Positions 1 to 37,763 of a stretch of DNA of 64,000 bases are shown in pieces. Made by a program: the position numbers and the translations under genes. The first letter of the stretch is position 1. Each line of letters opens with the position of its first letter. The stretch is from the NCBI GenBank assembly GCA_035605695.1, contig DATNGZ010000017.1:14454-78453 (forward strand), written 5' to 3'. Origin of the DNA: Solirubrobacterales bacterium. Its GTDB lineage: Bacteria > Actinomycetota > Thermoleophilia > Solirubrobacterales > 70-9. Below the pieces are notes generated by a model, which was given only the letters and a program-made list of their open reading frames with translations, made no database searches and was not told the DNA's origin.

Positions 1-80
1 ACTTTTTCGGCGTCCACCTCGAGGCGCCAGCAAATCCGTCTCCATCGAAAAAGTTAAGTGGAACCCCTGCCGGATAGGCC
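1..80. repeat. Right-hand part of a family-B nested-palindrome intergenic element (left arm lies outside the window)
   Basis: ACTTTTTCGGCG...GAGGCGCCAGCA...CTCCATCGAAAAAGTTAAGTGGAACCCC matches the cores at 28425..28535 and 37603..37712 in the same orientation. It ends directly at the infC stop codon (81). Confidence 0.55.
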
Positions 81-779
81 TTACGCAGCGGCTGCATCGT
101 CGCCGGACGTCTCGTCCTCAGCGGCGGGTGTCTCATCAGCCTCAGCAGCCGGCTCCTCAGCCGCAGCAGACGCCTCCTCGGCAACCGGTTTCTCGCTCGC
201 GGCAGTCGTCACCTCGTCATCCACTTTGGCTGCCTCTTTGCCGGGCGCCAGCAGCATGCTCATGTTGCGCCCTTCCTGCAAAGGCTGAGACTCGATCACA
301 GCAAGCCCGTCGAGATCCTCGTAGAGGCGTTGCAGCAGCGCCCTCCCCCGCTCCGGGTGCGCCTGCTCGCGTCCGCGGAACATGATCGTCACCTTGACCT
401 TGTCCTGGTGGCGGAGGAAACGCGCGACGTGACCCATCTTGGTCTCGTAGTCGTGCTGGGCGATCTTCGGCCGCAGCTTGATCTCGCGGATATTGACCTG
501 CTGCTGGTGCTTGCGGGCCTGCTTTTGCTTTTGCTCCTGCTCGTACTTGTACTTCGAGTAGTCGAGCAGGCGGGTGACGGGCGGCTTTGAACCGGGGGCG
601 ACCTCGACCAGGTCGAGGTCGGCGTCCTGAGCGCGTTTGAGAGCCTCGTCGATGTCGACGATCCCGAGCTGCTCCCCCTCGGCGCCGATCAGACGCACTT
701 TGGGGACGCGGATCCGCTCGTTGATCCGGGTCGTGTCGCGCTCTGGTGGGCGCCGGTCGAACCTACGCGGGACCGGCAC
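81..779 (-). CDS. infC: Translation initiation factor IF-3 with an Ala/Glu-rich C-terminal tail
   Basis: 232-aa ORF with a GTG start. It contains [40 protein letters not shown] and [11 protein letters not shown], which correspond to the IF3 N- and C-domains. The last ~55 aa are low-complexity acidic sequence. Confidence 0.95.
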
Positions 780-14830: not shown

Positions 14831-14899
14831 GGCCGGGAGCCCCCTCCCAAAACACTCAAGAGCGGCTCCCGCCGCTCGTTTTGGGAGGGGCTCCCGGCC
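14831..14899. repeat. Family-A nested-palindrome element, copy 1 (proB-proA intergenic)
   Basis: The sequence is GGCCGGGAGCCCCCTCCCAAAAC-ACTCAA-GAGCGGC-TCCC-GCCGCTC-GTTTTGGGAGGGGCTCCCGGCC. The core is shared with 17911..17984. Confidence 0.75.
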
Positions 14900-17910: not shown

Positions 17911-17984
17911 AGAGCCGGATGCCCCCTCCCAAAACACTCAAGAGCGGCTCCTGCCGCTCGTTTTGGGAGGGGGCATCCGGCTCT
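17911..17984. repeat. Family-A nested-palindrome element, copy 2 (between the convergent acyltransferase and obg)
   Basis: The sequence is AGAGCCGGATGCCCCCTCCCAAAAC-ACTCAA-GAGCGGC-TCCT-GCCGCTC-GTTTTGGGAGGGGGCATCCGGCTCT. The core matches copy 1 and the outer arms differ but remain complementary. Confidence 0.75.
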
Positions 17985-27874: not shown

Positions 27875-28423
27875 TCAGTCCTGGTCGAAAAGTTCCGGCG
27901 CGAGATCGAACAGCAGCCCGACCGGCAACCCGACCACGTTCGAGACGCTCCCCTCGAGCCGCTCCACCAGCGTCGAACCCAGGATCTGGATCGCATAGCC
28001 ACCAGAGCGCCCTTCCCACTCGCCAAAGGCGACATAACGCTCCTTCTCGGCCTCACTCAACCGCTTGAAGACCACGGTCGTGCGCTCGAGCCCGCTGCGT
28101 TCCTCTCCGTCGGTGAGGACCACTAGTCCGCTCAGCACCTCGTGAGATCGCCCTGACATCCGGTCCAAATAGCTCCGAGCCTCAGCAGCGTCGGCAGGCT
28201 TGCCCAGCGCCTTGCCATCGAGCACCACGTCGGTGTCGCAAGCAATAACCAGGCCATCTCGCGCCACCGCTCGGGCCTTCCGCTTGGCGTTCTCGAGCAC
28301 CTCGACGTTCGGGTCTCCCCCGTAGAGCTCATCGACGCCGGAGACGACAACCTCGAACTCGAGCCCAAGCTTCGCGAGAATCTCGCGCCTCTGCGGCGAT
28401 CCGGATGCCAGCACCACGGTCAA
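27875..28423 (-). CDS. maf: Maf-family nucleoside triphosphate pyrophosphatase (septum formation protein)
   Basis: VVLASGSPQRREILAKLGLEFEVVVSGVDE..., GAYAIQ-like GGYAIQILG. The start is uncertain: TTG 28423, GTG 28417, or GTG 28492. The last would read through repeat element B1. Confidence 0.85.
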   Translation of the reverse strand: MTVVLASGSPQRREILAKLGLEFEVVVSGVDELYGGDPNVEVLENAKRKARAVARDGLVIACDTDVVLDGKALGKPADAAEARSYLDRMSGRSHEVLSGLVVLTDGEERSGLERTTVVFKRLSEAEKERYVAFGEWEGRSGGYAIQILGSTLVERLEGSVSNVVGLPVGLLFDLAPELFDQD

Positions 28424-28424
28424 A

Positions 28425-28535
28425 GGCCCGGGTGGGTGGGGTCGGAGCGTCTTGTACTTTTTCGGCGATTCATCCTCGGCGCAGCCGCCCACTCTTCACC
28501 GAAAAAGTTAAGCGGAGACCCCACCCACCCGGGCC
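28425..28535. repeat. Family-B nested-palindrome element, complete copy (ndk-maf intergenic)
   Basis: The 19-bp perfect arms are GGCCCGGGTGGGTGGGGTC and GACCCCACCCACCCGGGCC. They flank the core GGAGCGTCTTGTACTTTTTCGGCG...CACCGAAAAAGTTAAGCGGA. Confidence 0.75.
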
Positions 28536-28538
28536 CCC

Positions 28539-28946
28539 CTACGCCAACTCTGGAAACCAGATCCCAATCTCGCGCTCGGCCGACTCATCCGAGTCAGACC
28601 CGTGGACCATGTTGTAGGTGACCTCCAGAGCGAAGTCCCCGCGGATCGACCCGGGCGCAGCCTCGACCGGGTTGGTCGCGCCGATCAGCTGGCGCGCGGC
28701 CGCCACCGCTTCGTGACCCTCCAGCACCATCGCGACCAGGGTGCCGCCGGTGATGAAGGAGACCAGCTCGCCGAAGAAAGGCTTCTCGGTGTGCTCTTCG
28801 TAGTGCTTGTTGGCAATCGGCTCGTCCGCCCGCATTGTCTTCAGCGCCGCGATCCGCAATCCCTTGCGCTCAAAGCGGGCAATCACCTCGCCGCTCAGGG
28901 CGCGCTCAAAGGCGTCAGGCTTTACGAGGATCAGCGTCCGGCTCAC
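28539..28946 (-). CDS. ndk: Nucleoside-diphosphate kinase
   Basis: [32 protein letters not shown]..., NMVHGSDS (active-site His). Confidence 0.95.
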
Positions 28947-35902: not shown

Positions 35903-37111
35903 ATGAGTGTTGATCCGGCGGAGCCTTTTACAAATCCCTTTCGCCCCGGCGCGGGACATCGCCCTCCCTACTTGGCAGGACGGGCGCCTGAGCAGGGGGA
36001 GTTCGAGAAACTACTAGACCAGGACGTCATCCTCGAGAACCCGCTGCTCACTGGATTGCGGGGCGTGGGCAAGACTGTCCTGCTGGAAACCTTCAAGCCC
36101 CTTGCAATGCAGCGCGGGTGGATCTGGGTCGGAACTGACCTCTCGGAGTCAGCGAGCGTAAGCGAAGAGGCACTTGCCATCCGACTCTTGGCTGACCTGT
36201 CGGTCGCAACTTCCACCCTGGTGGTGGAAGAGGCGGCAGTTCCCGGATTTGCCGGAGGAAAGGAAGACGTCTACCTTGACTTTCAGGCTTTGACCGGCAT
36301 CTACAACTCGACACCCGGCCTGGTAGAGGACAAGCTGAAGGCAGTCCTGGAGATCGCCGCAAAGGTGATAGCAAGGGAGGGAAGCCGCGGGGTGGTCTTT
36401 GCCTATGACGAGGCCCAAAACCTTGCCGACTCGGCAAAGCAGAACGAGTTTCCCCTTTCCCTGCTGCTCGATGTCTTTCAGTCGATCCAGCGAAAGGAGA
36501 TCCCCTTCATGCTGGCGCTGACCGGGCTTCCAACGCTGTTTCCAAAGCTCGTCGAGGCACGCACATTCGCGGAGCGGATGTTTCGCGTGATCGTTCTGGA
36601 CAAGCTGAATGAGAAAGCCAGTCGAGAGGCAATCATCAAGCCGATTGAGGACACGCACTGCCCTGTTCAATTTGCCGATGAGTCGGTAGCGATGATCGCG
36701 AGTCATTCGGGGGGATACCCCTACTTCATTCAGTTCATATGCCGAGAAGTCTTTGACGCCTTCTTGCTACTGCAAAGGCAACAAGCGCCGACTCCGTATT
36801 CCGTTCCGTTGGACGCCATCACACTGAAGCTCGACTCTGACTTTTTCGCGGGACGATGGGCGCGAGCGACAGACCGACAGCGCGATCTGCTGTGGGCAAT
36901 CGCAACGCTGGATAGACCGGACGACGAGTTCACCGTGCAGGAAGTTGTCAAAGCGTCGAAAGGGCTCGACAAGCCTTTTACGAGCAGCCACGTAAACCAG
37001 ATGCTTGTGAGCCTGTGCGGCGCCGGCCTGATCTACAAGAACCGCTTCGGCAAGTACTCATTCGCCGTCCCACTTTTTGATCGCTTCATCCTGAGGCAGG
37101 CTCAGTTGTAG
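35903..37111 (+). CDS. ORC/Cdc6-like AAA ATPase (Arch_ATPase/AAA_16-type) with a C-terminal winged-helix domain; low-GC gene
   Basis: Has Walker A GLRGVGKTVLL and Walker B VVFAYDEAQ. The C-terminal wHTH-like region is LLWAIATLDRPDDEFTVQEVV...VNQMLVSLCGAGLIYK. GC content and codon usage are visibly lower than in the flanking genes. Confidence 0.8.
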   Translation: MSVDPAEPFTNPFRPGAGHRPPYLAGRAPEQGEFEKLLDQDVILENPLLTGLRGVGKTVLLETFKPLAMQRGWIWVGTDLSESASVSEEALAIRLLADLSVATSTLVVEEAAVPGFAGGKEDVYLDFQALTGIYNSTPGLVEDKLKAVLEIAAKVIAREGSRGVVFAYDEAQNLADSAKQNEFPLSLLLDVFQSIQRKEIPFMLALTGLPTLFPKLVEARTFAERMFRVIVLDKLNEKASREAIIKPIEDTHCPVQFADESVAMIASHSGGYPYFIQFICREVFDAFLLLQRQQAPTPYSVPLDAITLKLDSDFFAGRWARATDRQRDLLWAIATLDRPDDEFTVQEVVKASKGLDKPFTSSHVNQMLVSLCGAGLIYKNRFGKYSFAVPLFDRFILRQAQL

Positions 37112-37677
37112 GCGTCCCAACGCCGAAGTGAGGGCTCGGGGTCTATCGGCTGACCGTGGACGTGGATCTCGAAGTGGAGGTGACAGCCGATCGTGATCGC
37201 GTTGCCGGTCTCCCCCACGGCGCCGACCCGCTCGCCGGTCCAGACCCGGTCGCCCCTGCGGACCAGGGCCGGCCGGGGCATGTGGGCGTAGAAGTAGCTG
37301 CGATCCTCGCCTTCGCCGTGGATCAGCAGGTAGTTGCCGTAGAGGACCGGGTCGTAGCCGCTGCGCAGCACACGGCCGCCCCGAACCGCGACCAGCGGCG
37401 TGTTGCAGGCGGCAACAATGTCAAAGCCCTCATGAGTCCGCCCACCACTGCGCGACGCACCGAATTCACCGATGTAGCCCCGCGTGCCGTGCGGGCCGGC
37501 GACCGGAAAGACGTGGCCGTAGTACACCGTGCCACCGCTGTGACCGGAGATCTGGGCCGAGGCGGATGCAACGCCAACGGCAAACACAGCCAGAGCCAAA
37601 AGGACCGTCCCGATAGGGGTGGAGCGTCTTGTACTTTTTGGGCGCTTAGCTTGAGGCGCCAGCAGGCCACTCTCCAT
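37102..37677 (-). CDS. M23-family (LytM-type) metallopeptidase, secreted
   Basis: Contains HEGFDIVAA, YFYAHM and GCHLHFEIHVHG (HxxxD / HxH motifs) and the signal-like segment TVLLALAVFAVGVASASA. The first ~25 codons are encoded by repeat element B2, so the start is uncertain. Confidence 0.8.
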   Translation of the reverse strand: MESGLLAPQAKRPKSTRRSTPIGTVLLALAVFAVGVASASAQISGHSGGTVYYGHVFPVAGPHGTRGYIGEFGASRSGGRTHEGFDIVAACNTPLVAVRGGRVLRSGYDPVLYGNYLLIHGEGEDRSYFYAHMPRPALVRRGDRVWTGERVGAVGETGNAITIGCHLHFEIHVHGQPIDPEPSLRRWDAYN

Positions 37678-37747
37678 CCAAAAAGTTAAGCGGAACCCCT
37701 ATCGGGACGGTCCCACCCCTCGACGTTAAGCGGAACCCCTACCGGGA
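37603..37747. repeat. Family-B nested-palindrome element (37603..37712) plus a 23-nt direct duplication of its right end (37725..37747)
   Basis: The arms GACCGTCCCGATAGGGGT and ACCCCTATCGGGACGGTC flank the core GGAGCGTCTTGTACTTTTTGGGCG...CATCCAAAAAGTTAAGCGGA. GTTAAGCGGAACCCCTA(T/C)CGGGA occurs twice. Confidence 0.75.
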
Positions 37748-37763
37748 TGGGCGCGCTCGGCCC

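Follow-up and report, generated by a model that had tools for sequence, protein, structure and literature searches.

The repeat lying between ndk and maf in a Solirubrobacterales genome, here called Family B, is best read as a MITE-like, noncoding, and nonautonomous mobile element of ~114 nt that is often flanked by TA, an interpretation to which we assign a probability of about 0.6. Of the features that define MITEs, we observed small size, terminal inverted repeats, and many dispersed copies with insertion polymorphism; since the units measure only 112–116 nt, they are too small to encode a transposase. A secondary use by the host as a 3′-end hairpin would be plausible. The window, i.e., the whole stretch of DNA analyzed, comprises 64,000 nt (C17:14454-78453) of an assembly of 3.0 Mb with 67% G+C. 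The initial annotation had proposed a small nonautonomous element as one of two explanations and had not recognized the core as a known RNA family or MITE, and a search of Rfam agrees: nothing passed the gathering score, and relaxing the E value up to 10 brought in only generic miRNA-hairpin models, with at most 28 bits against cut-offs of 45–168 (best: 28 vs. 168).

Hairpin Structure and Genomic Copies

Each unit consists of an arm of 20 ± 1 bp, a left (L) box, a variable apex, a right (R) box, and the second arm, and folds as one long hairpin. The conserved boxes, GGARCGTCTTGTACTTTTTSGG and CCSAAAAAGTTAAGYGGA, pair with fixed bulges, and between the arms and the box pairs lies a 3 × 3 purine loop with GGA opposite GGA. 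In an alignment of 37 copies, the register after the purine loop runs R28–Y97, C29–G96, a 3-nt GUC bulge, and UU/AA, followed by a small GU/U loop and then ACUUUUUSGG with CCSAAAAAGU; the core had been described early on as self-complementary, and this register fits the covariation. The R28/Y97 pair was A–T in 86 and G–C in 81 copies with a single mismatch, thus covarying in 167 of 168 copies, and S44/S85 was paired in 162 of the 168. As this larger set was gathered with near-exact box patterns, the invariance of its boxes is partly by construction. The apex (30–35 nt) is variable, its sole motif being a weak GGCGNCAGC. Across the 37 aligned copies, 98.5% of the cells were paired and 20 pairs carried changes on both sides, a pattern reached in none of 500 shuffles; between same-locus copies of different species, the arm differences are likewise paired double changes. 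The suggestion that compensatory change keeps the hairpin intact is well supported by these figures.

The window holds three plus-strand copies at the places where they were first annotated, the ends of two being refined here to 1..83 and 37602..37713, and a fourth, partial copy on the same strand that had been missed. Copy 1 (1..83) is cut by the window edge and retains the end of the L box, the apex, the R box (48..62), and the right arm (63..81), with TA next to it at 82..83; the full copy spans C17:14421..14536 in the assembly, so the window shows its right two-thirds. Copy 2 (28425..28535) has a left arm GGCCCGGGTGGGTGGGGTC (28425..28443), a core (28444..28516) made up of the L box GGAGCGTCTTGTACTTTTTCGGCG (28444..28467), the variable apex (28468..28499), and the R box CGAAAAAGTTAAGCGGA (28500..28516), and a right arm GACCCCACCCACCCGGGCC (28517..28535). 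Copy 3 (37602..37713) carries its arms at 37602..37620 and 37695..37713 around a core of 74 nt (37621..37694). The arms were complementary at 19/19 positions in copy 2 and again in copy 3, in agreement with the perfect complementarity first reported. The predicted folding energy of copy 2 is −74.7 kcal/mol (z = −8.7), and the R box AAAAAGTTAAGYGGA is present three times in the window against an expectation of 0.00 (100 shuffles). The left-arm variant of copy 2 is rare and also found at the same locus in genomes G012 and G038, and its apex is closest to that of the copy on C5 of the same genome. Its neighbors are both on the minus strand: the TAG stop codon of ndk (28539..28541; Pfam NDK) lies 3 nt off the right foot, and the likely TTG start codon of maf (28421..28423; the Maf profile matches from residue 3) is 1 nt off the left foot. 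The partial copy at 37725..37756 is a solo right end, GTTAAGCGGA with the arm ACCCCTACCGGGATGGGCGCGC; it looks like the remnant of an older copy, since G012 carries at that locus a full element whose right arm is identical to this one.

The copies of the window belong to a larger set. Pattern and covariance-model searches gave 38 strong copies in the own genome (G000), extending the original count, and ~11 of a second subfamily of the form GTTGAGYG... The family was found in all 18 sampled genomes of the same genus, and the four chromosome-scale genomes (one contig each) contained 52, 19, 38, and 38 L boxes, spread across the whole chromosome. The exact core was present at >118 loci in many uncultured MAG species of Solirubrobacterales/Thermoleophilia. 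Among 12 genomes from other Solirubrobacterales families there was no convincing match, the one weak hit having an E value of about 0.001 (in G028); the viral contigs searched contained no copy, and public RNA/DNA runs gave faint metagenome DNA matches only (share 0.10 or less) and no RNA match. Family B is restricted to one genus of uncultured Solirubrobacterales. An exact core was also seen on a contig labeled as a Chloroflexota MAG (L092, JBLMYD010000083.1), which is probably mis-binned Solirubrobacterales and not a true occurrence beyond the lineage. A full-text search of the literature found no description of such repeats in Thermoleophilia/Solirubrobacterales, nor are Actinobacteria mentioned anywhere in a 2024 review of prokaryotic MITEs. 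The lineage is known almost entirely from soil metagenomes, and Family B gives it a well-defined, previously undescribed family of MITE-like repeats.

Insertion Sites and Gene Ends

The arms are part of the element. They share the consensus 5′-RGGSCNRTCCCGGTAGGGGT, which is common to most of the 168 copies and varies freely only at the outer ~6–7 positions. Across these copies, which come from many species, arm pairing extends to position 20, counted from the core, and is random at position 22 and beyond; because it breaks off so abruptly near position 20, the length of the arms belongs to the element itself. Pairing was perfect in 110 of the 168 copies. The arm motif CCGGTAGGGGT was found 39 times in the genome, 36 of these within elements, and palindromes consisting of arms only numbered two in 61 genomes of the genus. 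It is the family consensus, the near-exclusive occurrence with the core, and the absence from true empty sites that argue for assigning the arms to the element. The initial annotation had called the arms completely different between copies; the two pairs that it compared proved to be extremes of one consensus family.

Empty sites, which the initial annotation had envisaged as the same arms without the core, were found at ndk–maf, C16+113357, C19+38250, C17+14442, and C78-12392. At these sites the stop codons overlap or abut, and arms and palindrome are absent; the overlapping convergent stops read TTAG, CTAG/TTAA, and CTAAG at C16+113357, C19+38250, and C17+14442. Across the 37 own loci compared with relatives (~19 in detail), presence is patchy, G012 sharing most copies and other genomes fewer, and the copy at C22-4618 was seen in G000 only and is missing from all three nearest genomes tested. 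The ndk–maf junction could be followed in 25 species: 10 have Family B, always in the same orientation, six have the ancestral, palindrome-free arrangement, five have a different hairpin element of ~110 nt, and four have short sequences. In species lacking the element, the start codon of maf shares bases with the stop codon of ndk (TTGA). A tree of the ndk flank shows the three states, with the element, with the other element, and with an empty site, intermixed among close relatives.

Comparisons of filled and empty sites also suggest a target duplication. The empty site has one TA, and the filled one is flanked by TA left and right, at C78-12392, C17+14442, and C19+38250, and partly at C16+113357; at C17+14442, the locus of copy 1, the orthologous empty site with the single TA is that of G050. 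We further considered the 52 copies that are antisense to both neighbors and found TA at a distance of 20–25 on the gene-free side in 18 of them, with a peak at 21–22 and three cases in a control window. Against the preferred reading, the duplication is clear at only 3–4 loci, the ndk–maf site (TCA) does not fit it, and many copies have no TA on one side. At the available identity of ~80–85%, the duplicated unit can be read as TA, CTA, or TNA, and away from empty-site comparisons the duplicated TA and the terminal dinucleotide of the element are indistinguishable because TA is palindromic.

Codon-model ORF calls placed the stop codon at the foot of the element for 38 of the 96 genes that run into it from the left and for 45 of the 116 that do so from the right, and further genes stop at a TAG inside the arm or at the TAA of the reverse-complement R box. 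According to the mechanism that we propose, the element would insert at TA-containing sites, which in a genome of 67% G+C would mostly be stop codons (CTAG, TTAG, TTAA, and CTA). Insertion would duplicate the TA, and TA together with the terminal G/A of the arm would rebuild TAG or TAA on both sides; the abutment of stop codons to the hairpin foot on both strands would follow from this. The local rule that stop codons lie exactly at the foot of long hairpins would then be accounted for by target choice plus the terminal base of the element, apparently with no need for a special termination mechanism.

The element-free sites bear on a further account, one of the two explanations given in the initial annotation, in which only the ~75-nt core, at most with the inner arm, is mobile and inserts at the apex of pre-existing palindromes resembling terminators, so that their stems form the outer arms. 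In its favor, mini-palindromes that match the outermost arm bases were found at some sites without the element, TACGG-CT-CCGTA in G013 at C15-31925, ACCGGC-TC-GCCGGT in G038 at C17-81590, and GGACCG|CGGCC in G013 at C22-4618, and cores and arms have partly separate histories. Two cases show, however, how loss of the center of an element creates mini-palindromes. At C78-12392, G015 has CTA-GGGCC CC GT-CTA where G000 has CTA-(element)-GT-CTA and G013 a single CTA, and the G015 sequence reads better as a loss footprint that keeps both flanking TA and a few end bases of each arm; at ndk–maf, G046 has the other hairpin element with its center deleted. We infer that the mini-palindromes are deletion footprints and not targets, the polarity being judged from genomes of different species that, even when nearest, are only ~80–85% identical. 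With pairing that ends at a fixed 20 ± 1 bp, an outer arm with its own consensus, true empty sites free of palindromes, and the scarcity of arm-only palindromes, insertion of the core alone is highly improbable.

The element also touches the starts of genes. Next to copy 3, the sole in-frame ATG of an M23 peptidase gene (ORF 37105..37677) lies within the element (37621..37694, minus strand), whose antisense L box and arm encode ...KRPKSTRRSTPIGTV...; this stretch shares its reading frame with the hydrophobic segment of the signal peptide. The extension "PKSTRRSTP" recurs next to another copy, where it is attached to an unrelated ORF (L087 4418..5611). An antisense frame can extend neighboring ORFs and is not a gene of the element; from these cases, elements may donate or distort gene starts. 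For annotation, this means that the elements mark gene ends and can extend or restart neighboring ORFs, and gene callers may misplace both starts and stops.

Conservation of the Hairpin and Probable Exchange of Cores

Among same-locus copies of different species, identity was 96% in the L box and 97% in the R box, compared with 71% in the inner arm, 57% in the apex, and 42% in the outer arm, and the diverged arms stay paired. Box identity of 96–97% at the same loci is unexpected of a purely selfish, decaying MITE and calls for exchange of cores, ongoing turnover, or a role in the host. A second pattern is strand specific: among the arm mismatches of the 168 copies, 54 were G:T on the core-sense strand and 12 were A:C, the bias being located within the inner 13 positions. 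Part of it is a recurrent T:G at position 7, and the mismatch events are for that reason not all independent. The bias persists when the neighbors are transcribed in the opposite direction, and suggests folding of the sense strand in single-stranded form, whether RNA or DNA. Such a bias, whatever the direction of transcription of the neighbors, is not predicted by a plain double-strand transposon.

These patterns are shared with an alternative in which Family B is a host-functional structured nucleic acid, either a terminator or mRNA-stabilizing hairpin at 3′ ends or the binding site of a dedicated protein, with purifying selection at each locus and mobility only in its history. It would explain the conserved boxes between diverged apexes and outer arms at orthologous loci, the arm pairing kept through double changes, the conservation of the irregularities themselves (the GGA/GGA purine loop, the GUC bulge, and a G:U pair), and the excess of sense-strand wobbles. 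It also agrees with the positions of the copies, 65 of 168 of which lie between convergent genes with stop codons at the hairpin foot, and with the other hairpin families that occupy the same sites in other species. Several observations oppose it. In both orientations the full hairpin lacks a T-run behind it, only one weak copy-specific inner hairpin being flagged in copy 2, and a role as an intrinsic (Rho-independent) terminator, a G+C-rich hairpin with a run of U directly after it, is not supported by sequence. At ndk–maf, 1 nt separates the end of the hairpin from the start codon of maf, so an efficient terminator is impossible there and transcription must read through. In tandem gene contexts the element is antisense in 52 cases and sense in 26, and the wobble bias does not depend on which strand is transcribed. 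Many species are without the element at a given site and show no visible replacement, and exchange of cores could add to the uniformity of the boxes. We consider selection for a host function possible, with odds well below even, and keep the mobile element as the preferred reading.

Such exchange is suggested by the apexes. The best apex match had a median of ~0.85 between paralogues within G000 and ~0.62 for same-locus copies in other species, and the most similar apexes often come with dissimilar arms, copy 2 and the C5 copy being 0.85 identical in the apex and 0.55 in the arm. Rare arm variants, on the other hand, stay with their locus across species. Since apexes are alike within a genome while rare arms keep to the locus, cores appear to be exchanged between copies in a form of concerted evolution; this weakens the argument for purifying selection site by site, and in the proposed mechanism it is the exchange that would keep cores alike within a genome. 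Family B offers a natural data set on the compensatory evolution of a 20-bp stem, on the concerted evolution of a short module, and on the turnover of hairpins at fixed sites.

Three solo right ends (C3:23125, C17:52178, which is the one at 37725 of the window, and C41:88173) each lie 11–13 nt after a full copy and begin exactly at GTTAAG, and the one on C3 is conserved in G012; the sequences suggest a site-specific break or replacement at GTTAAG. At L107:483 (minus strand), the R box carries an 8-nt insertion that repeats TAAG, GTTAAG-GACCTAAG-TGGA, a small duplication at the same spot. At C3-3803, the arms are the same in G013 and G050, and the core between them lies inverted.

Could Family B be a folded single-strand recombination site, similar to attC or to the hairpin substrates of tyrosine or HUH enzymes, whose cores a hairpin-specific recombinase exchanges, inverts, or cuts at GTTAAG? 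The integron attC R′ consensus is GTTRRRY, the R″/R′ boxes are at the base of the hairpin, and attC sites are arrayed between cassettes near intI. Family B resembles attC in being an imperfect hairpin that seemingly acts single-stranded, in its GTTAAGY box, which as read from the sequence fits the R′ consensus, in its conserved unpaired bases, and in its location right after stop codons. The strand-specific wobble bias, the solo right ends starting at GTTAAG, the one core inverted between the same arms, and the swapping of cores between loci all agree with such a site. The box is, however, 20 bp inside the hairpin and not at its base, the copies are single and dispersed chromosome-wide at the ends of housekeeping genes rather than arrayed by an integrase, and no integron integrase context was seen. 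In 19 genomes of the genus no Y1/HUH transposase was found, and the search identified no candidate recombinase. We judge a recombination site of this type to be highly improbable.

A looser idea, which we offer with considerable doubt, is that the core is an exchangeable module and that an enzyme recognizes the folded sense strand by the purine loop, the GUC bulge, and GTTAAG, moving, flipping, or swapping cores between resident arms by cutting at GTTAAG; in its other form, a genus-specific RNA- or DNA-binding protein would dock at the boxes, and the host would now depend on it at ~40 gene ends. If the enzyme version were true, Family B would represent a single-strand, hairpin-directed mobility or recombination system working without RAYT or an integron integrase.

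Search for Partner Enzymes, and Related Repeats

In the MITE-like reading, the boxes with their fixed bulges and the purine loop would be the recognition site of a putative trans-acting protein, be it a transposase, a recombinase, or a host RNA- or DNA-binding protein. We found no autonomous IS with matching ends in the own genome or at the 118 loci. To our knowledge, many accepted bacterial MITEs, the Correia elements among them, are also without a cognate autonomous IS. DDE_3 (IS630) transposases are present in 3 of 19 genus genomes and were not found in the other 16; one IS630 candidate that we examined as a parent (G011) has unrelated ends (TACTACTCCGG...), and this, together with the lack of DDE_3 in most genomes, led us to reject it. 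A pair of L and R boxes 3.3 kb apart was also considered as an autonomous parent and rejected: it is a transposon inserted into the L box, with inverted repeats of its own and an 8-bp duplication, TACTTTTT. This transposon (L203:589..3936, the same as G073:C110, and also at L087:5591) has a lower G+C and imperfect 25-bp inverted repeats (CAACTAGGTAGG...), and carries as passengers a 297-aa ORF without assigned function and a 197-aa membrane protein. Its transposase is, as we take it from sequence motifs, IS1595/ISXO2-like.

The RAYT enzymes deserve separate mention, as a REPIN, a doublet of REP sequences spread by the Y1 transposase RAYT, would also give extragenic copies with a long hairpin of inverted halves, and there is a GTAG-like tetranucleotide inside the arm (CCGGTAGGGG). 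Y1_Tnp (PF01797), the RAYT/IS200 domain, was matched in none of the 19 genus genomes, i.e., the own and 18 others, while 6 of 14 control genomes gave matches, and the arms are not independent REP palindromes. Barring a highly divergent Y1 enzyme, the chance that Family B is a REPIN is next to negligible.

Compared with known systems, Family B is a MITE/REP-like palindromic repeat and behaves most like the Correia and ERIC elements. Correia elements duplicate a TA target. Also called CREE or NEMIS, these Neisseria repeats of ~100–150 bp have long terminal inverted repeats around a conserved core, are found in tens to hundreds of dispersed copies by genes, form a long hairpin when transcribed, and have no known cognate transposase (PMC10969869, PMC2649163); their inversion has been reported (PMC10969869). 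Family B is similar in size class, terminal inverted repeats, dispersed copies by genes, hairpin, inverted core, and apparent TA duplication. It differs in its unrelated sequence, its phylum, and its 20-bp arms, which evolve fast yet remain perfectly paired while the internal boxes are most conserved; a promoter scan found no promoter-like site in the element, and Family B sits at stop codons, whereas Correia elements are mainly upstream of genes.

The ERIC (IRU) and REP/BIME repeats of enterobacteria are imperfect palindromes of ~35–127 bp that lie in intergenic regions subject to transcription, frequently at 3′ ends or between convergent genes; their presence differs between related species, different families occupy equivalent sites, and REPs depend on RAYT genes. 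ERIC elements have been described at the 3′ ends of genes (PMC10969869). Family B is unlike REP in the absence of RAYT genes and unlike both in its layout of box, apex, and arm and its precise contact with stop codons. With the Stowaway, Tc1-mariner, and IS630-type MITEs, such as the pneumococcal RUP, it shares small size, terminal inverted repeats, and the apparent TA duplication; it differs in that no IS630 element with matching ends was found and that most genomes of the genus are without the DDE_3 transposase.

Other hairpin families sit at Family B sites in other species. The one at ndk–maf is a second, unrelated nested-hairpin repeat of ~110 nt, CTGCCGGGGGGTGGC...GTTTTGGGGG...GACAGGACCCGCCGGCC, seen at L122, L124, L129, L139, and L142, which are the ndk–maf junctions of G013, G033, G015, G045, and G052. 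The same repeat is probably present in the window at 14831..14899 and 17911..17984, and it is likely the one that the initial annotation had called Family A. Two more palindromic families, TTCCGGTGCGC...GCGCACCGGAA (L154, L157, and L184) and GCTGACTTC...GAAGTCAGC (L168 and L169), are found in G033, G050, and G038 at gene-end sites whose orthologues in G000 hold Family B. Several hairpin families seem to use the gene ends of this genus as slots.

In three species (L046:7238, L053:6137, and L068:1489), Family B abuts the stop codon of a gene ending in ...GKKYKKCHG*, which we take from its sequence to encode a SecA-type SEC-C zinc motif. The 3′ end of this gene is coded by GGTAAAAAGTACAAGAAGTG, which is similar to the L box when the latter is read as its reverse complement (AAAAAGTACAAGACG), a likeness that is probably due to chance.
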